Origin: a virus
Direction: 5' to 3' (one strand)
IMG/VR virus record: IMGVR_UViG_3300017739_000004
Location: 38,949 to 102,948 of that record
Length of the DNA: 64,000 nucleotides
Shown here: positions 2,496 through 40,100 of the stretch, piece after piece
How positions within the stretch are numbered: position 1 is the first letter of the stretch
Layout of the letters: each line of letters begins with the position of its first letter
The notes under the pieces: generated by a model
Told to the model about the DNA's origin: nothing
Seen by the model: only the letters and a program-made list of their open reading frames with translations
Database searches by the model: none
Program-made: the position numbers and the translations under genes

Positions 2496-3420
2496 AGTAC
2501 TTTTAGCATCATTAATAATTTTAAGTGGTTGTGCTTCGATACCGAAGTGGTCGGACGATCCACAAGATTGTAAGATACCAAAGATTGTTGATGTAGTCAC
2601 GGCTGTACAAAAAGTTTTTGAAAGAAAATACATTTGTGTAGATATGCCAGAGGTTGTTAACTTACCTGCTTATATACAATTATTAGAATTACCACCACCA
2701 ACAATTGAAAAACCAGTTGTTGCAGTATATAGTTTTTTAGATAAAACGGGTCAAAGAAAAGCAAGAGAAGGTATAGCAGATTTCTCAACAGCTACGACTC
2801 AAGGTGGAGTAGAATTATTAGTAGACGCTCTAAAGACAGCCGGAGGTGGCACATGGTTTAGAGTTGTTGAAAGACAAGGCGTAGATCATCTAGTTAGAGA
2901 AAGACAGATTATCAGAAGCGCTAGACAAGAGTTTGCAGGTGATAATGGCCCGCAACCTTTAAACCCTTTATTATTCGCAGGAATGATTATAGAGGGTGGA
3001 ATAATTGGTTATGATACTAACATAATGACGGGAGGTCGGGGCGCACGAACTCTCGGTATTGGTTATGCGAAACAATATCGTAAAGATGTTGTGACTGTTT
3101 CGGTTAGAGCTGTTTCAGTTCTGACTGGTGAAGTATTATTAAACGTCCAAGCTCGTAAGACTATTTTATCTTATGGGTCAGGTGGTGATATCTTTCGTTT
3201 TATAGAGGAAGGTACTCAACTAGTAGAATATGAGGACGGTGTGGGAAATAATGAGTCGGTGACATATGCAACACGAGCAGCAATTGAAGCTGCGGTGTTG
3301 GAATTAATTTACCAAGGCCACGATCGTGGTTATTGGAATATAAGTGATGGGCATCGCCATCCACATCTTAATGATGGGGTAAACGATAAACATCAATTAG
3401 AGGAGTACGAAAATGAATAA
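2488..3420 (+). CDS. csgG: Curli secretion channel lipoprotein CsgG
   Basis: Lipobox LSGC from ATG 2488; VAVYSFLDKTGQRK, WFRVVERQG..LVRERQIIRS, EGGIIGYDTN, VLTGEVL. Confidence 0.92.
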   Translation: MVRVLLASLIILSGCASIPKWSDDPQDCKIPKIVDVVTAVQKVFERKYICVDMPEVVNLPAYIQLLELPPPTIEKPVVAVYSFLDKTGQRKAREGIADFSTATTQGGVELLVDALKTAGGGTWFRVVERQGVDHLVRERQIIRSARQEFAGDNGPQPLNPLLFAGMIIEGGIIGYDTNIMTGGRGARTLGIGYAKQYRKDVVTVSVRAVSVLTGEVLLNVQARKTILSYGSGGDIFRFIEEGTQLVEYEDGVGNNESVTYATRAAIEAAVLELIYQGHDRGYWNISDGHRHPHLNDGVNDKHQLEEYENE

Positions 3421-4150
3421 ACTTTTAAGTATAGCATTGCTATTGTCGACTACTTTTGTTTTCGCACAAGCCACTGATGATAACGAAATTAAGATCACAC
3501 AATCTGGTGATACCTTAAAATTATATGTAGACCAAATCGGTTTTGGAAACAAAATCGGCGGTGATGACGCTTCAGGCGGTTCACTATCTGCTATGACTAT
3601 TACAGGTAGTTCACTAGAGTTTGATTTAGATTTTACTGGTAATCAAAACGTTTTATTTGGACCAGTCGAAGCTGATAGTTCTTACTATAAGCTCGATTTT
3701 ACTGGTGATTCAAACAAAATAGATTGGAATATTGGTTATATCGGAAGTGCTGATGATTCAAACATTAACTTTGATGTGACAGGTGATTCTAACGAATTTG
3801 ACCTAGATCAAGGTTATGTTGCTAGTGCAGAAAGATTAGATGCTGATTTAATTTTAATTGGTAGTTCAAATATATTTGACATAGACTGGGAAAGTGATGA
3901 TAACGTTTGGGACTTTGATATTACAGGAGATTCAAACAATATTAACACATTACAAAATGACGGCGAACACAATCTTGAGTTCACTTTAGTAGGTGATTCA
4001 GCTGACGTCGACATTAATCAAATATCTGGTACATGTGCAAGTGGAGCAGGAACAAGTTGTGTTTCACCAAATGCAAATATTGTATTAGATGTGACTTCAG
4101 ACAATGCAATCATTCAACTTAATCAACAAGATTCGTCTAACGATTCTTAA
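3413..4150 (+). CDS. Secreted curlin-like beta-repeat protein
   Basis: GAGGAG SD; signal peptide; repeated xTGDSNx / QxG units; acidic; next to csgG. Confidence 0.7.
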   Translation: MNKLLSIALLLSTTFVFAQATDDNEIKITQSGDTLKLYVDQIGFGNKIGGDDASGGSLSAMTITGSSLEFDLDFTGNQNVLFGPVEADSSYYKLDFTGDSNKIDWNIGYIGSADDSNINFDVTGDSNEFDLDQGYVASAERLDADLILIGSSNIFDIDWESDDNVWDFDITGDSNNINTLQNDGEHNLEFTLVGDSADVDINQISGTCASGAGTSCVSPNANIVLDVTSDNAIIQLNQQDSSNDS

Positions 4151-5213
4151 TTTATTACTCATTAGTGGGTTTGCTTTTTCTAGCGAACCCATTGGTGGTA
4201 TTAAAGAATCTATTGGCTATGGTGGAATTACAAGAGATGATGAAACTTATAACCATGATGTCGGATTAGAAATTCAACTTAACGATCAAGCTGAAACAGC
4301 AAATGGTCGTATGCTTATAGAGTTCTTAGACGATGCAGAACTCCAACTCAAAGAACATTCAAGGGTTTTAATAGATACGGTTTATTACGATCCAAACCCA
4401 AACCTATCAAAAATGACTATGCGTATGGTCAGTGGAACAGCAAGATTTGCATCAGGTTCTAAGGGTTTAATTAATAAAGCAAACATAGAAATATCAACAC
4501 CAACCGCTACAATTGCTGTAAGGGGCACGGACTTCACCACAACAATAGATGAAATTGGACGAAGCCTTGTTATCTTATTACCTGACGATAAGGGAGAACC
4601 TTCAGGTGTTATTGAAGTCACCAGTTTAGGTGGAACAGTTGTATTAGATGAAGCTTATGCAGCCACAATGGTGTCATCTTATGATTTACCACCAACAACA
4701 GAAACCGTAATTCAAGGTATAACACCTGCACTGATTGATAATATGTTTATTGTGAATCCACCAGAGGAGGTGAAAGAGGCAGTAGAAGAACAATTAGCCG
4801 ATGAACAAAACGAAGATCAAGGAATATTAGATATAGATTTATTAGACTTTACTGAATTAGAAGAAGATGAACTAGAAGAAGATGACTTAGGTGAGTTTAA
4901 TGAATTAGATATTGATGAATTAGATGTAGAGTTTTTAATAGATGTTTTAGACATTGTAGATTCTGGTGATCTATTTGATACATTAGGTGAGTTTGATATT
5001 CAAGGCGCAACAAGAGGATTTAATGATGAATCACAATATAATGTCTTTTTAAGAAATGGTGATTTAGTATTTTATAGAAATGTAAATGGTGTAATAGAAT
5101 TACAATTCGAAGCTGGAGGTAGCTTTACCTTAGACACAGATACTCCAACATGGTCAGGTATAATTACTGGTAATGATGGAGAAGATATAATAGTAAGGAT
5201 TAGACAGTTATAA
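4104..5213 (+). CDS. Exported FecR-domain protein with an acidic C-terminal region
   Basis: Signal-like N-terminus; ETANGRMLIEFLD, ISTPTATIAVRGTDF (FecR-family pattern). Confidence 0.8.
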   Translation: MQSFNLINKIRLTILNLLLISGFAFSSEPIGGIKESIGYGGITRDDETYNHDVGLEIQLNDQAETANGRMLIEFLDDAELQLKEHSRVLIDTVYYDPNPNLSKMTMRMVSGTARFASGSKGLINKANIEISTPTATIAVRGTDFTTTIDEIGRSLVILLPDDKGEPSGVIEVTSLGGTVVLDEAYAATMVSSYDLPPTTETVIQGITPALIDNMFIVNPPEEVKEAVEEQLADEQNEDQGILDIDLLDFTELEEDELEEDDLGEFNELDIDELDVEFLIDVLDIVDSGDLFDTLGEFDIQGATRGFNDESQYNVFLRNGDLVFYRNVNGVIELQFEAGGSFTLDTDTPTWSGIITGNDGEDIIVRIRQL

Positions 5214-15167: not shown

Positions 15168-15191
15168 AGGGACCTTCGGGTCCCTTTTTTT
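15168..15191 (+). terminator. Rho-independent terminator with a UUCG loop
   Basis: AGGGACC-TTCG-GGTCCCT followed by a T-run, between convergent genes. Confidence 0.92.
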
Positions 15192-17271
15192 AATCTGATG
15201 AAACAGCTGAATTAGATGTTTGTTGACCTTCTGGATTAATACCGACTGATGCAATTGTTGGACCGACACTTGTATTAGCATTAGAAATATTATTAATTAC
15301 AACATTTCCTGTTGCACCACCATTACCTAATGCAAATAACTCTGGTCCACTATTAATTGTAGGTAAAATTAAATTATTAGATTCATCATTGACTCTTTCC
15401 ATAGAATCGGCAAGTTCATTAAACACTATAGCAAGATTTTGTAAAGGTGCTATTCTATCTACACCATCACCTAATACATTATCAAAAAGTAATCCTTCAT
15501 TAACAATTGTTTCACCACTTAATAATCTTACACCATCTGAAAATTTGGCTAGACTTTCTACTGCATCATCTGATATTTTAAAATCTTTATCAAGATCAAG
15601 TCTACTAAAAACTGCAAAGGCTCTTCCAAGTTCTTCCATACCTTCTGCACCAGCTTTAAGTTCAGGTCCTTTATCAGCAACTTCCATTGCTATATCTAAT
15701 GGTGATTTTTTAGAACCTGTAAAAAATTCTAAAACACTTGAACCAAAATTAGATAGTGCACTACTAAAAGCTTCAGAACCAAAATATGAAATTCCATTAC
15801 CGACTTTGCGTAGAGCATAGTTAAGATCGTCTGAATCTTGTTTAATATCTCTTCCCTCACCAATTGATAATAAGGTAGTCACTTTACTTTTAATATCTTC
15901 AGCAAAATTACCTTCTTTAGACATAAAGTTTGCTAAACCAGAACCAACTCCTGCAACAGCTGTACCTATTCCAAATACAGCCAAACCAGCTCCAATACCT
16001 GACATTGCTAAAAAGAATTTTCCACTTTCACCAATAAAAGTATCGCCATCGGCTTCGACCGCATCTTTTATAGATAACAATATTAAAACATTATCTTTAA
16101 TTTGTTGTGCAAATAATTCTCCAGTTCCTGTAAATCTTGCAACACCTTCGGCAACTCCTGAGCCAGCACCTGCAACTGCAGCACCTGCACCAAATATAGC
16201 TAAGCCAGTTCCAATACCACTCATGGCTAAGAAAAACGCTCCACTATCAAATAACATATCAATATTACCACCTAATGAATCTTTAATTGATAATAATATT
16301 AGTACATTATCTTTTATACTTTGGGCAAACTGAGTATCTGAACTAAATTTATTAATACCTTCTGCAGCTCCTACTCCTGCTGAACCAACAGTTGCTCCAG
16401 CTCCAAAGACTGCAAGACCTGCAGCTAATCCTGTCATAGCTGCGGGGAAGAAGGCACTATCTATTAAGAACTCAAGATTACCACCTGCATCATCTGCAAT
16501 AGATAATAATGTCAATACATTTTGTTTTATACTCTCACTATCTAAACCTATAAATTTATCAGCTGCGCCCGCGGCCGCGGAACCAACTCCAAATACACCA
16601 AGACCGATTCCTAAACCAGCTAATACTGCTGTCAGAACTCCACCTTCTGCATAGAATGAAAGTAATGAACCTTCGCCATCAGCTGATGGTACTATAGCCA
16701 TAATCTCTTGTATATTATTTGCAACTTTAGCTCCATCTACGCCTTGAAATTCTTTCATTGCTTTTGCAGATGCAAATAATGCTATACCTAAACCTGCTGC
16801 AGCTATACCTGCTCCAGCTAAAGCTCCACCAAGTTTACCAATCATTGACCCACGGCTTTTAGCTTCTGTAGCTTGTACTTTACTTGCTTTACTTGTTTCT
16901 TCAGCTACCTTAGAATCTTTTTCTAGTAATTTTAATTTTTCTTGATCGTCTTGTTCTTTTTGAAATTGATTTTCAGCTTGATCTTGTTTTTGTGATTTAA
17001 ATATATTAGCTATAGAATTTAATATATCTGTTTGAGGTGCAGATTGTTCTGCAAAACCTTTTAAGGCTACTTGTTGTTCTAATATTGCGGTTTGAGTATT
17101 TTCTTTTGCAGGCTTTTCTTTACCAAATATATTTTTACTAGAAAAAACATCTGTTAAATCTTTTAAAGCTTTTTTACGATTTTTATTTGGATCATCGTCA
17201 CCGCCACCGCCGCCACTACCTCCGGCACCAGCACCAGTTTGTCCAAACAATTGGTTAAAATCTTCTGCCAT
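15190..17271 (-). CDS. Tape-measure / baseplate hub protein (gp29-like)
   Basis: 693 aa Ala/Gly-rich helical repeats; downstream of 26/51. Confidence 0.65.
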   Translation of the reverse strand: MAEDFNQLFGQTGAGAGGSGGGGGDDDPNKNRKKALKDLTDVFSSKNIFGKEKPAKENTQTAILEQQVALKGFAEQSAPQTDILNSIANIFKSQKQDQAENQFQKEQDDQEKLKLLEKDSKVAEETSKASKVQATEAKSRGSMIGKLGGALAGAGIAAAGLGIALFASAKAMKEFQGVDGAKVANNIQEIMAIVPSADGEGSLLSFYAEGGVLTAVLAGLGIGLGVFGVGSAAAGAADKFIGLDSESIKQNVLTLLSIADDAGGNLEFLIDSAFFPAAMTGLAAGLAVFGAGATVGSAGVGAAEGINKFSSDTQFAQSIKDNVLILLSIKDSLGGNIDMLFDSGAFFLAMSGIGTGLAIFGAGAAVAGAGSGVAEGVARFTGTGELFAQQIKDNVLILLSIKDAVEADGDTFIGESGKFFLAMSGIGAGLAVFGIGTAVAGVGSGLANFMSKEGNFAEDIKSKVTTLLSIGEGRDIKQDSDDLNYALRKVGNGISYFGSEAFSSALSNFGSSVLEFFTGSKKSPLDIAMEVADKGPELKAGAEGMEELGRAFAVFSRLDLDKDFKISDDAVESLAKFSDGVRLLSGETIVNEGLLFDNVLGDGVDRIAPLQNLAIVFNELADSMERVNDESNNLILPTINSGPELFALGNGGATGNVVINNISNANTSVGPTIASVGINPEGQQTSNSAVSSD

Positions 17272-17280
17272 TTATTTTAC

Positions 17281-17655
17281 CTATTTGCCACCAAATGCTT
17301 TTCCAGCCTCGCTTATACCAAATGCACCTAATGTCACTACGACAAATGATGTATAAATTGTATCACTAATTACTAAATCAACTCCTTGGAAAGCTGTGAT
17401 TAAATCACATATTCCAAATACTGTCATTAAAGTAAAAGAGATAAAACCAATAATTGATTTTTCATTGACATCATTATCATCTAAAAATAAATCCATAAAT
17501 TTACGTTTAGGTGGTGCTAATTGTTTACGAGCTGCTTCAGCTTCAGCTTTCATTTCTTTAATAGTATCTTCGGACTGATCGAGTTTATCGATCAAAGCCA
17601 TATACTTATCTAAGTCTATTTCTACTTCATTTCTGCTATTATCTTGTTCAGTCAT
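17281..17655 (-). CDS. Two-TM membrane protein with an N-terminal coiled coil
   Basis: SIIGFISFTLMTVFGICDLI and SFVVVTLGAFGI hydrophobic segments. Confidence 0.75.
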   Translation of the reverse strand: MTEQDNSRNEVEIDLDKYMALIDKLDQSEDTIKEMKAEAEAARKQLAPPKRKFMDLFLDDNDVNEKSIIGFISFTLMTVFGICDLITAFQGVDLVISDTIYTSFVVVTLGAFGISEAGKAFGGK

Positions 17656-17656
17656 T

Positions 17657-17788
17657 CTATCTTCCTTGTTGTCTTATTCTTTCATTTTCCTGTTCTATAT
17701 GAGCCCTGAGCATCGCAGTATATACCTCCCTCTCCCATGGCATCATATCATTTAGTTCTTCCAAACTATAGTTATGATGTTGCATCAT
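17657..17788 (-). CDS. 51: Short gp51-like baseplate hub assembly protein (absent from ORF track; probably reached by frameshift)
   Basis: MMQHHNYSLEELNDMMPWEREVYTAMLRAHIEQENERIRQQGR; frame is open back to 17842. Confidence 0.8.
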   Translation of the reverse strand: MMQHHNYSLEELNDMMPWEREVYTAMLRAHIEQENERIRQQGR

Positions 17789-17835
17789 CGCAAAGTTTGA
17801 CTGATAATGGTTTACCAGCGTATCATGCGAGAGGC

Positions 17836-18543
17836 CTACGTAAAAAAACTTTGAAGCCCTTTTAACCCTATTGTATTTTCATGCTGACAATTAGTGCAAC
17901 AAAATGTGTCTTCGTAAGACATTGCTGGTACGTTTGTAAAAAAATCTTGAATCATTTTAAATTGTTCTGATCCAAATGATTCTACAAAGTCTACCAAATC
18001 TTCTTTTGTTTCTTCGTCTGCATTATATACGTTGTCGTCATCAAATATAGTATCGACACTTGCAACTACTAAATCCATTAAACCTTGAACGGTATCTAGT
18101 TTGTTTAAATCAATATTTTCTAAACTATCCATTGTTGGATATCTTAAAGTCATTCCAATCTTTTTTTGTTGATCTAACATAAAAGTTTTTTCTACATCAA
18201 GATTGCTAACTTTAATATCATCAATATTAATTTCAATGTCATTCATAGTTTCACATTCTTCACATTTCATTCCGATTTTTATTTTCTCACCTACAGATTT
18301 AGCTCGTAGATTTAAAAATAAAAACTCTATATCAAAAGATGTTAATTTACCAACATCTTTAATATCGCAACAACTCATAATTAAATTTCTTACTGCTTGT
18401 TGGATTTGCATAGCATCCTTAGATTCTAATGCTACTAACAAGACTTTTTCTTCCCTTACTAAGTAAGGTCTCATACTAATTTTTTCTCCAGTTGATGGTA
18501 ATTCAACCATATACTGAGGAACACTCAATTTTGGTAAAGCCAT
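17836..18543 (-). CDS. 26: Baseplate hub assembly chaperone gp26
   Basis: MALPK...LPSTG..I.MRPYLVREEK, FDIEFLFLNLRAKSVGE, CxxC pairs, ends GLQSFF. Confidence 0.9.
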   Translation of the reverse strand: MALPKLSVPQYMVELPSTGEKISMRPYLVREEKVLLVALESKDAMQIQQAVRNLIMSCCDIKDVGKLTSFDIEFLFLNLRAKSVGEKIKIGMKCEECETMNDIEINIDDIKVSNLDVEKTFMLDQQKKIGMTLRYPTMDSLENIDLNKLDTVQGLMDLVVASVDTIFDDDNVYNADEETKEDLVDFVESFGSEQFKMIQDFFTNVPAMSYEDTFCCTNCQHENTIGLKGLQSFFT

Positions 18544-18568: not shown

Positions 18569-19216
18569 TTATCCAATTAGAGATTTAGGAAAACCCGCTC
18601 CGATAGCTGATACACTACTAGCAATGGTATCTTCCGGTACATATCTATCATAAGACATTGTCACCTCTATTTTGCTTTCTCCATTTGGTGCTTGCGTTAA
18701 TTGCATAGCGCCAATTCCAACTGGGAAAGCATCAATTAATTTCACGCCATAAACCACATCATTTTCTTGGTTCAGTTGTTGTATCACAACATCACAAGTA
18801 TAATCATTTTTATAACCTAAGGCATAACCTTCAGAACTTACAATCATTTGCGCCCAGTCATCAAACATTCTTTTTATATAAAAATCGTTTGTGACTAAAA
18901 AGCTAAATGATACATCAGCATCTGTATAACCTTGCACTCTCTTTTCAGGATATCGTGCAGTGTAATCAAATTGTTTTGTTTGAATTGCTTTAGATGGCAA
19001 TGATGTAGACTCACATAATAATGATAGTGTTCTTGGATCACTTAATAATTGATTTTTATTAAAAGTGCCTCTTACTAAACTACCAAGTATTGCATCAATG
19101 TCTATATTAATTAAAGCTTGAGATGGTGGTGTAAAGAGTACATTAAATCTATTAGTACGACCTATGCCACCTCTATTATTAATTTCTGCTTTTAAATCGT
19201 CTATTGAGCCTGCCAT
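18569..19216 (-). CDS. Tail-tube family protein (gp19/gp54-like)
   Basis: RTNRFNV, LCESTSLP, FDDW, VKLIDAFPV..V.MSY. Confidence 0.75.
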   Translation of the reverse strand: MAGSIDDLKAEINNRGGIGRTNRFNVLFTPPSQALINIDIDAILGSLVRGTFNKNQLLSDPRTLSLLCESTSLPSKAIQTKQFDYTARYPEKRVQGYTDADVSFSFLVTNDFYIKRMFDDWAQMIVSSEGYALGYKNDYTCDVVIQQLNQENDVVYGVKLIDAFPVGIGAMQLTQAPNGESKIEVTMSYDRYVPEDTIASSVSAIGAGFPKSLIG

Positions 19217-19835: not shown

Positions 19836-20276
19836 TTACAGTACTTTTATACCTAGATTCTTTAAAGTTTCTTCTGTCCAGACTTGAAATTGCCAACCAT
19901 TATGTTTTGCAAACTTATCTGCAGCATTCCATTTATCTTGATTTCTTGAAAAGGTAAGTGCTTCATTGATATATCTTTTAGTTTTTCTTGATTTCTTTTT
20001 AGGTGGCATAGTTTGATTCTTTGGTTTGATTTCCACCAAAAAGATTTTTTTGTTTTCCATTTCTATTAATAAGTCTACAAAATACCTATGTATTTTATTA
20101 TCAATAGAACATTTATAAGGAACAACAACTCCTTCACTATTCCATAACTTAACTTTGGGGTTATTCTCGCACCATCTAAAGGCATTTCTTTCCCATAATG
20201 ATCTGAATACCACATCGCGTGTATTGCCAGCATACTTTTCTGGCTTTTTAATTGTGTATTTACCCTTGTAACTCAT
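19836..20276 (-). CDS. 4: Head completion nuclease gp4
   Basis: YKGKY..KKPEKY.G, RSLWER, HRYFVD, LVEIKP, NQDKW.AA, TEE.L. Confidence 0.92.
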   Translation of the reverse strand: MSYKGKYTIKKPEKYAGNTRDVVFRSLWERNAFRWCENNPKVKLWNSEGVVVPYKCSIDNKIHRYFVDLLIEMENKKIFLVEIKPKNQTMPPKKKSRKTKRYINEALTFSRNQDKWNAADKFAKHNGWQFQVWTEETLKNLGIKVL

Positions 20277-37122: not shown

Positions 37123-40100
37123 ATGGCAATAGATAAAGAAACAAGAATATTAAAAAGTAATACCATTGAGCAATTTAGACAAAAGGCCAATGAGGTATCT
37201 TTACACTTAGGCGATACAGACCAATTAAATAGTTTAATTGCAGATAATGTATTTGACTATTCAAATGTTTCTGTAGGTACAGATTTAGTACAAGGTAGTG
37301 ATGATAATTCACTCATACAAAAATTTAATATAAAACCAGATGAAAGTTTAGATAATACTGGTGGTTATATTATTCTCAAAGGAAGTCCAACAATACCATC
37401 AAGTTTTGTTGCAGATGCTGTTGTCACACAATCAGGTGGATTCTCAGCAACTATTGTTAGTGTTTCAACATCAAAAATTCTTGTTAAAAATAGTTCAGGT
37501 ACATTTAATGCTGCACAAAATCTAGTAATAGGTTCAGACAATATAGCCAATTCAGCAGTCGTTAGATTAATTACAGAATCATATAATGTTGGTAATATTA
37601 GAGTATTTAAAAATGGTACTGAATTACCACAAGACTTATCAGCTACAGGTTTCCACGTTCCAGCTTTATCTGGTGTCATTACTTTACAAAATAATCCAGC
37701 ACTAGCAGGTTATGAAGAAGGTACAACAATTTCACAATCAGGTGGATTTAGTGCGACAGTTCTAAAGGCCACTTCAACAGCATTATTCTTAAAAGTACAA
37801 TCAGGTACATATTCAGTTAGTCAAAATATTACTGGTGGTGATGCCGCTATTATAGCAGCTAATCATACAGGTATATCAAGTAAAGACATTGCATTCGGAA
37901 ATGCCATCGAACTCAATACAATTACTGCAAATGCAACTGATGATATCCAAATTAAAGCCACAAGTACAGTACAAGCTTTAAACGAATTACAAGATGACAT
38001 CGGTAATATTGCTAACTTAGGTACAACCTCTGCAGGTGATTTAGTAGTTAGTATTAATGAATTAGAAACAGGGCTGAGAGGTACTTTAGGAAATTATACA
38101 GTATCTACAACTCAAGCTGGCCATGGTGTGGTCGGTGCAGTAAATGAATTACATACTGATATCGGAACAGCTAGTTTTACAAATGATCTTCCAAGTCATG
38201 CGACTTATAATACTGGTTCGCAAAACTTAACTGGTCAAATAGAAAATATTGCAACCTTTATTGGTGACACAGCAATTAATAATATTCATGGAAGTACACA
38301 TACTATTACACAAACTATTTCTAAACTACATACAGAAATAGGAAATATGACATTGACTGGATTAAGTGCAACAACTTTATCCGGTGCGGCAAGAGAACTC
38401 AGAACAGAATTAGGTGATGTCACTGCATTAAATACATCAGTCACAAGTAATGTGGTTGGTGCAATCAATGAGATTGAAGGTGTATTCGATGCATCAGCAA
38501 GAACAATTACTACATCCGGTGACTTGACAATTGATTCATCTGGTGATATAATATTGGATGCAGATGGTGGTGATATATTACTTAAAGATGCTGGGAATAG
38601 TTTTGGTAAATTTACTAATAGTTCTGGTAGTTTGCATATAGTATCTCAAGGTTCAGACAACGATATTAACTTCTTTGGTAATGATGGTGGCTCAAGTGTG
38701 ACTGCTCTCACCCTTGATATGTCAGATGCTGGTACAGCAATCTTTAATCACGATATTAAATTACCTGATAGTGGTCAAGCAATTTTTGGTGCAGGCTCTG
38801 ATTTAAAAATTTATCACGATGGTTCTAATAGTTATATAAATGATGCTGGTACTGGATATTTAGTAATTCAATCAAACGGACCGGGTATTCGTTTAAATAG
38901 TTCTGCAGCAGAAATAATGATTGATGCAACTCCTGATGGTGCTGTAACACTTTATCATAATAATATAGCAAAACTAGCCACTAAAGCAGATGGTGTAGAT
39001 ATTACAGGTGAATTACAATCAGATTCATTAGACGTAGATGGTGTTGGAGATATATCTGGTAATCTTACAGTTCACGGTGTCTTAGATATAGGAACACTCA
39101 GTACACAATTTAGTGTATCAAATAGAAATGATGTAAAACTTGCTTTAAATGAATTGCATTCAGAATTAGGTAATGCTGTAATAACAGGAACAAATACCGC
39201 AGCTGCAGGTTTAACTAATCTTACATCAGCCATAAATGCAATCGATGCAGAAATTGGTGTCACAAATACAATATTAAATAGTGTTGGTACTCATGGTGGT
39301 ACAACTGTTGCAGGTGTATTAGGAAATCTAAGTACAGCAATAGTAAATAATGATACAGATATATCTACCCTTCAAGGAAGAGATATAATTGCAGGAACTG
39401 GTTTAACTGGTGGTGGAACATTAGCTGAAGATAGAACATTAAATGTCATTGGTGGTGATGGTATCACTGCTAATGCAAATGACGTTGCAGTAGATGCTAC
39501 AGTTCTAAGAACAACAAGTACAAATGTTGTAAGAACAGATGCAAATAGAAATATTGTCAGTGGAACCACTGTCACATTTGATTCTGGTTCATCATTAATA
39601 ATTAATGGTACATTGACATTAGCTGGTTCTGCATCAGGTGTATCTACATTTGGTGTAAACTTTGTTGAGGTTGATGGTTCTGGAAATCAGCAAGGTCTAC
39701 AGGTACAAAATAGTTTTTCAGGATATAGTGTAGACCCTAGAGTTCAATGGAATCATACAAGAGTCAGTGCAGCCCCAACAAGAGCATGGCAATTAGTTGG
39801 TCTTGCAGCTGATGGAAGTACAGCAGATACTACAGACATAGTCACATATACAAACTTTGGTGATCTTGCAGATGGTACTCATTTAGAAAAGAGTGGTACA
39901 TCTCTTAGAATAAAAGATAGTGGTGTCACAACAGATAAAATTGCAAATTTAAATGTCACAACAGGTAAAGTTGCTGCTAGTGCGATTACATTTGCTAAAA
40001 TGCAAAACATATCACAGAATAGATTATTAGGAAGAACTGCTGCAGGTTCTGGTAATATAACAGAAGTTCAAATACAAACAGGTATGATTGCAGCAGATGC

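Follow-up and report, generated by a model that had tools for sequence, protein, structure and literature searches.

A probable -1 frameshift linking the gp26 and gp51 reading frames in T4-like phages

We consider a stretch of 64,000 nucleotides (in the following the window) from an uncultured marine T4-like phage, positions 38,949 to 102,948 of the IMG/VR record IMGVR_UViG_3300017739_000004, which comprises 102,948 bases and is estimated to be 61% complete. The GC content of the window is 33.5%. Its minus strand encodes a gp26-type protein, followed by a 43-codon open reading frame (ORF; 17657-17788) that begins with ATG ATG and is called gp51, the baseplate hub assembly catalyst, by annotation pipelines. 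Our analysis indicates, with a probability of about 0.86, that the two ORFs constitute one gene decoded in two ways by means of a -1 slip on the heptamer U_UUU_UUU. Most ribosomes would read gp26 up to its TAG codon and release a protein of 235 amino acids (aa). A fraction would slip back by one base, with two tRNA-Phe on U_UUU_UUU (positions 17848-17842), and continue in the -1 frame; the slip would add 61 residues and result in a long form of 295 aa. T4 gp26 would then be the counterpart of the short form and T4 gp51 that of the long form, and the pair would follow the logic of gpG and gpGT of phage lambda: a chaperone body with the fold of the tail assembly chaperones (TAC) and a minority form that carries an extra C-terminal module.

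That tail assembly chaperone genes contain a -1 frameshift is already known; lambda gpG/gpGT and the conservation of the frameshift were reportedly described by Levin in 1993 and by Xu, Hendrix and Duda in 2004. New here, as the evidence below supports, is its probable occurrence in the T4-type gp26/gp51 family. The event is among the most widely conserved cases of viral recoding, with T4, which has been studied more than any other myovirus, named as the exception: the frameshift is stated to be conserved 'except T4' (Atkins et al. 2016, PMC5009743). This agrees with the remark of an earlier reading, made from the sequence alone (the sequence-only reading), that the mechanism is not one associated with T4-like phages. 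Full-text searches gave no paper, and databases no record, describing a slip in gp26/gp51.

A conserved slippery heptamer at the end of gp26

The gp26-type gene (17836-18543, minus strand; 235 aa for the zero-frame short product) matches PF12322 (T4_baseplate; E = 7e-58) and phrog_150 (E = 2e-65). Its residues 9-234 cover positions 2-218 of the 219 positions of the PF12322 profile with a score of 196 bits versus a curated cut-off of 24.5, a full-length match that places the protein within the family. The 3' end of the gene reads ...GGG CTT CAA AGT TTT TTT ACG TAG on the minus strand. It contains the heptamer T_TTT_TTT (17842-17848, minus strand), which is of the form X_XXY_YYZ, lies in the phase of gp26 and is the proposed site of a tandem -1 slip of two tRNA-Phe. 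The zero-frame stop codon TAG (17836-17838, minus strand) follows after one sense codon. Relative to gp26, gp51 lies in the -1 frame, which is open from eight codons before the Phe-Phe pair to its stop codon at 17657-17659. Its translation reads FF-YVGLSHDTLVNHYQSNFA-MMQHH..., with no ATG, GTG or TTG ahead of the double Met. The -1 extension as a whole (17657-17842, minus strand) consists of 61 codons (YVGL...QQGR) plus stop; the predicted long form combines residues 1-234 of gp26 with these 61 residues and would be the equivalent of gp51, as indicated by the open frame, phrog_634 and the alignment with T4 gp51. The sequence-only reading had reported the in-phase run of seven T's in AGT TTT TTT ACG TAG and a -1 frame open to the gp51 stop, and both are borne out by the sequence.

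We note that a run of seven T's is by itself ordinary, as the window contains 25 homopolymer runs of at least seven A or T. A second in-phase T_TTT_TTT is located inside gp26 (17938-17944, minus strand; QDFFT). We take it as an internal control that does not belong to the device: its -1 frame stays open for only 17 codons, a slip at this site would yield a truncated product, and the run is probably incidental. The argument that the run at the gene end exceeds chance therefore derives from its conservation across related loci, not from its presence in the window.

To collect related loci, IMG/VR was searched with the aligned -1 peptides from the window and from three cyanophages; the search gave 596 matches, and the best 80 were retained. 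Together with the window and three isolate genomes, the metagenomic relatives make up 83 distinct loci, each located by tblastn. The alignment of extensions was needed for this search; a locus search with gp26 alone gave nothing beyond the window's own contig. The gp26 frame in the 83 loci comprises 228-247 codons, and its identity to the window is only 29-54%. Across this range, the heptamer is found at the homologous position and in the same phase in all 83 loci, as TTTTTT followed by T (33 loci), C (34 loci) or A (16 loci), never G. The sequence-only reading had proposed an alignment of gp26 3' ends as a check, and in this alignment neither the T-run nor the -1 phase varies. The tblastn match begins at the two Phe codons in every locus, and the zero-frame stop follows the heptamer after no more than one sense codon in 81 of 83.

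As expected of a frameshift cassette, the X_XXY_YYZ heptamer thus lies in zero-frame phase, and both tRNAs can re-pair in the -1 frame on each of its variants U_UUU_UUU, U_UUU_UUC and U_UUU_UUA. The absence of G at position 7 fits re-pairing. TTT is used for the first Phe in 83 of 83 loci, compared to a ratio TTT:TTC of 583:210 for the other Phe codons of these genes. Immediately before the run, the codon ends with T in all 83 loci, although five different codons are used that encode Ser, Asn, Asp or Ala; elsewhere, about 76% of AGY, AAY and GAY codons are T-ending.

Likewise, phiM12, a KVP40-like phage and the Pelagibacter phage Mosig have T_TTT_TT(T/C) at the end of gp26. In Mosig (stretch ~3170-3203) and in one more related locus there is no zero-frame stop codon right after the heptamer, and the short form is 9 codons longer, with heptamer and -1 extension intact. 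A different situation is found in Serratia phage 2050H1 (Ackermannviridae; stretch 1940-2130), where an unannotated gp51-like extension lies in the -1 frame after a single PF12322 gene. This gene ends with CAG GTT TTC ATC TGA and has no T6 heptamer, which suggests that the long form arises through another slip site or by another route.

Candidate stimulators are located on both sides of the heptamer. Upstream, a purine run that resembles a Shine-Dalgarno (SD) sequence, AAAGGG (17857-17862, minus strand), ends 8 nt before the heptamer. In relatives, a purine run with GG is located at -14 to -9, most commonly as GAAGGA or GAGGGT, and an SD-like 4-mer is found at -17 to -7 in 73 of 83 loci versus 7.4% of equal windows inside gp26. 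The same bases encode a conserved (K/E/R)-Gly, and the run is therefore regarded as a candidate upstream stimulator only. Downstream, an irregular and partly conserved stem-loop is predicted at 17779-17839 (minus strand; -20.7 kcal/mol, z = -2.4). When this hairpin is imposed on 27 relatives, 77% of cells are paired versus 31-51% for slid controls, a count that is not decisive because the structure was derived from the window itself. RNAalifold gave no consensus downstream structure for either 83 or 27 sequences.

Known -1 frameshift sites provide a comparison. The heptamer is G_GGA_AAG in lambda, U_UUU_UUA in HIV-1 gag-pol and A_AAA_AAG in Escherichia coli dnaX, the latter with an upstream SD-like stimulator. 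The HIV-1 heptamer is identical to one of the three variants found in the related loci (16 of 83). The likeness to dnaX consists of the SD-like purine run about 10 nt upstream, whose role here is confounded with coding. Both systems differ from the loci considered here, in which no conserved downstream stem-loop or pseudoknot was found.

One frame or two genes

The principal alternative is that gp26 and gp51 are two independent genes. The 43-aa gp51 would then be started at the ATG at 17788 or 17785 by re-initiation after the gp26 TAG 48 nt upstream, and the T-run would reflect a conserved Phe-Phe and nothing else. Public annotation is in line with such an arrangement: of eight records examined, five list a separate small gp51 coding sequence, three leave the stretch unannotated, and none joins the two frames. 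Furthermore, an ATG is present at extension codon 21 or 22 in 63 of 83 loci, and phiM12 has a TGATG stop-start overlap. In phiM12 (stretch 1940-1970) the heptamer T_TTT_TTT is present and the ATG overlaps the gp26 stop, such that coupled re-initiation could also give a 54-aa peptide that includes most of the residues between the heptamer and the usual Met.

These residues are nevertheless difficult to reconcile with two genes. The linker between heptamer and double Met (17789-17842, minus strand) consists of 18 codons without a start codon, with the consensus xxxLSHDSLxNYYKTNFA. In the -1 frame, the entropy of its alignment columns amounts to 0.79, 0.53 and 1.32 bits at the three codon positions, the same pattern as inside the accepted ORF just downstream (0.57/0.25/1.22 bits). 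The 43-codon ORF by itself matches only positions 75-115 of phrog_634 (E = 2e-17), the C-terminal third of this profile; with FF and the linker added, the match grows to positions 56-115 (E = 3e-26). The linker hence is conserved as protein and matches both gp51 profiles and T4 gp51. The sequence-only reading had asked for conserved residues upstream of MMQHH and had named stop codons between the T-run and MMQ as a point that would speak against it; the residues are conserved, and no such stop codon was found.

It had also noted that the internal Met lacks an SD sequence. This observation holds across relatives: ahead of the gp51 Met, an SD-like motif is seen in 1 of 75 loci, versus 63 of 83 ahead of the start of gp26. 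An ATG before QHH is missing from five loci, and one of the loci lacks ATG, GTG and TTG altogether. In 14 loci a stop codon in the -1 frame abuts the T-run, and the frame can therefore be entered only at the run. We thus find a -1 ORF that is open, under protein-coding constraint and without a start of its own, as is characteristic for a frameshift cassette. A search for longer homologues of the 63-aa extension gave none sharing words, which is weak evidence only.

A conserved Phe-Phe pair alone also does not account for the run of six T's. At the upstream conserved FF of gp26, which serves as a control, no more than 4 of 72 relatives retain the heptamer. In T4 and PspYZU05, where the long form is encoded separately, gp26 retains the residues GL/GF-KEFF, but the codons read GAG TTC TTT and GAA TTT TTT, respectively, and the -1 frame is closed. 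Likewise, the invariant wobble T of the codon preceding the run is without explanation at the protein level. We therefore consider two independent genes improbable.

Slightly less probable again is transcriptional slippage, in which RNA polymerase inserts an additional U at the T-run, and ribosomes then produce the same long form without shifting frame. Homopolymer runs are known to cause stuttering of the polymerase, with cases in bacteria and in IS elements. One added U would give exactly the -1 reading, and the run in the window has seven T's. However, in 50 of 83 loci the run ends after six T's with C or A next, a length that is short for efficient slippage of the polymerase. The run is also phase-locked as X_XXY_YYZ in 83 of 83 loci, a property that matters for re-pairing of tRNAs but not for the polymerase, and the seventh base, which is never G, points in the same direction. 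The short run in most loci and the strict phase therefore disfavour slippage by the polymerase, and the slip is probably ribosomal.

That one long gene was split by a sequencing error in the homopolymer, or by a frameshift mutation of recent date, has a negligible probability: homopolymer runs are error-prone and T4 gp51 is a natural single long ORF, but the same run and frame arrangement recur in 83 independent metagenomic and isolate assemblies, finished phage genomes included, and an in-frame fused form is found in none of them.

Relation to T4 gp26 and gp51 and to lambda-type chaperones

The T4 proteins provide an independent view of the two predicted products. T4 gp26 and gp51 are described as hub assembly chaperones, and gp51 is reported to be absent from the particle (Leiman et al. 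2010, PMC3004832). T4 gp26 (208 aa) matches PF12322 over its whole length, whereas T4 gp51 (249 aa) consists of a PF12322 match at residues 1-201 and about 48 further residues. The -1 peptide of the window aligns to residues 200-237 of T4 gp51, beginning exactly where the PF12322 match ends. Within phrog_150, window gp26 matches positions 5-233 and the -1 peptide positions 231-277. These profile and alignment matches show the predicted trans-frame protein to be colinear with T4 gp51, and the short form to be colinear with T4 gp26. Homology of the -1 peptide to the C-terminal extension of T4 gp51 is given by phrog_634 and by the gp51 alignment; its attachment to the PF12322 body would depend on the proposed frameshift.

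Window and T4 therefore share the family but not the gene arrangement. The GL-x-x-FF motif marks the end of T4 gp26 and of the short form alike; T4 gp26 has no slippery run at this FF. In T4 the two forms are encoded by separate paralogous genes, whereas one gene is proposed for both in the window. Since T4 genes 26 and 51 are transcribed divergently, a fusion of the two is impossible in T4. A corresponding pattern is observed across complete genomes. Seven of them, on which the count of one-gene phages is based, have one PF12322 gene with a -1 extension that would provide the long form: ACG-2014e, P-TIM40, S-WAM1, phiM12, the KVP40-like phi-Grn1, Mosig and Serratia phage 2050H1. T4 and Campylobacter phage CP220 have two PF12322 genes, one of which is a long single ORF. 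In CP220 the genes are about 9 kb apart and encode a long form of 244 aa (adjoining the terminase gene and annotated as hub assembly catalyst) and a short form of 225 aa, both on very long tree branches.

In a tree of PF12322 proteins, the gp26 and gp51 clades of T4 and PspYZU05 group together (support 87/86), apart from the single-gene forms. The tree fits a lineage-specific duplication in the T4/PspYZU05 lineage, but is only a hint, because it is small (14 rows), unrooted and contains two very long branches. Hints of a further distant relative are also found: T4 gp26 (stretch 3803-4429, minus strand) has a weak match to phrog_1140, the family of the 'baseplate hub distal subunit' gp28 (E = 9e-4), such that gp28 may belong to the wider gp26/gp51 family.

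The second line of comparison is structural. The gp26 protein consists of an N-terminal TAC-like domain (approximately residues 1-90) and a C-terminal part with four Cys (CxxC...CxxC), both within 17836-18543 on the minus strand. A search by sequence found no solved structure for gp26 or T4 gp51. An AlphaFold2 model of gp26, based on an alignment of 72 sequences, has a pLDDT of 92.5 and was compared by VIA-align with 48,161 representative chains. The top three are 3FGX (Rbstp2171; 7.3), 3KLU (YqbN of Bacillus subtilis; 6.9) and 2OB9 (the tail assembly chaperone gp13 of HK97; 6.7). Each score is middling. The three solved tail assembly chaperones hold the top three places in two programs and with two models, which makes a coincidence unlikely. 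Relative to 2OB9, 3KLU and 3FGX, identity is 4-19%, the rmsd about 4 A and the Foldseek E-value 0.09-0.8, which amounts to likeness at the level of fold and not to demonstrated homology. None of 71 N-terminal domains matches a TAC Pfam family at E up to 1, so membership by sequence is not found. We conclude from the models that the N-terminal domain of gp26 appears to have the fold of the lambda-type tail assembly chaperones. The sequence-only reading had suggested a frameshifted chaperone in the style of G/GT, and this suggestion is supported by the fold and by the colinearity with T4 gp51.

The likeness to lambda gpG/gpGT thus includes a proposed -1 slip on a heptamer close to the chaperone gene's 3' end, a nested pair of a short and a long product, and a shared TAC fold. 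It differs in several aspects: window gp26 has an additional part of about 140 residues that contains a zinc ribbon, the heptamer is U_UUU_UUN, the extension is short (61 aa), and no sequence similarity to any TAC Pfam family is present. The extension is the best conserved part of the locus, with a mean column identity of 67% versus 40% for gp26 and 22% for the upstream tail-tube-family gene. Judged by sequence, this fits a specific binding module, which the long form would carry.

We lean towards the view that gp26/gp51 is the missing chaperone system of the G/GT type in T4-like phages. Ancestrally, a single gene would have given both forms by a -1 frameshift; cyanophages, pelagiphages, KVP40-like phages and rhizobial T4-like phages would have retained this state, and duplication would have split it into two paralogous genes in T4 and its close kin. 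If true, the pair of a short and a long chaperone would be universal in long-tailed phages, and the exception of T4 would be only apparent. The proposal offers a testable explanation, namely that T4 genes 26 and 51 represent the short and the long form, and that most other T4-related lineages make both from one gene, slipping on six or seven U's. As a consequence, at least eight public T4-like genomes would need a corrected annotation; the gp51 peptide matches 666 phage records, and many of these would probably need one as well. The two arrangements would also allow a comparison, in nature, of how a protein ratio is set with one gene and with two.

Gene order and the presumed tape measure

The genes on the minus strand are, in order, a gp4-type head completion gene, a gp2-type DNA end protector, a tail-tube-family gene, gp26, the 43-codon gp51 ORF, a 124-aa ORF and a 693-aa gene. 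The tail-tube-family gene (gp54/gp19-like; 18569-19216, minus strand; 215 aa; phrog_45, E = 2e-31) is located directly upstream of gp26, in the position of lambda V, and a tube-family gene is found directly upstream of gp26 in 73 related loci. Downstream of the extension, relatives have either an ORF of 500-830 aa directly or an ORF of 100-127 aa followed by a large ORF. The order tube gene, chaperone, extension and large downstream gene therefore resembles the order V-G-T-H of lambda.

The sequence-only reading had placed the frameshift just upstream of the tape measure gene, a placement that may be correct. Two caveats apply to it and to the likeness to lambda: the 124-aa ORF separates gp51 from the large downstream gene, and the latter, which has no tape-measure signature, is presumed to be the tape measure by its position.

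The 693-aa protein (15190-17271, minus strand) is rich in Gly and Ala and repetitive, with several hydrophobic Gly/Ala-rich repeat units and a recurring NVL-LLSI...GGN...FFLAMSGIG...AGAG. It is presumed to be the tape measure from its syntenic position. The only other pointers are an Atlas lead to the PF25671 cluster (0.91) and the label of the phiM12 annotators, who call the syntenic gene tape-measure-like. No Pfam match was found for the protein even at E up to 10, and the PHROGs gave one marginal match to an unnamed family. An hhalign comparison of 16 syntenic large proteins with T4 gp29 found no relation (probability 0.8%). The syntenic counterparts are extremely divergent, with a mean column identity of 20%.

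The 124-aa ORF (17281-17655, minus strand), located between gp51 and the large gene, is charged and coiled in its N-terminal half and hydrophobic in its C-terminal half, and matched no Pfam or PHROG family. A counterpart is present in about half of the relatives; elsewhere the large ORF follows the extension directly. That the ORF represents the N-terminus of the larger single ORFs of these relatives was ruled out by BLASTP. At the upstream end of the gene order, the gp4-type head completion protein (phrog_218; 19836-20276, minus strand) also matches the N-terminal domain of TnsA-like endonucleases (PF08722, E = 8e-18).
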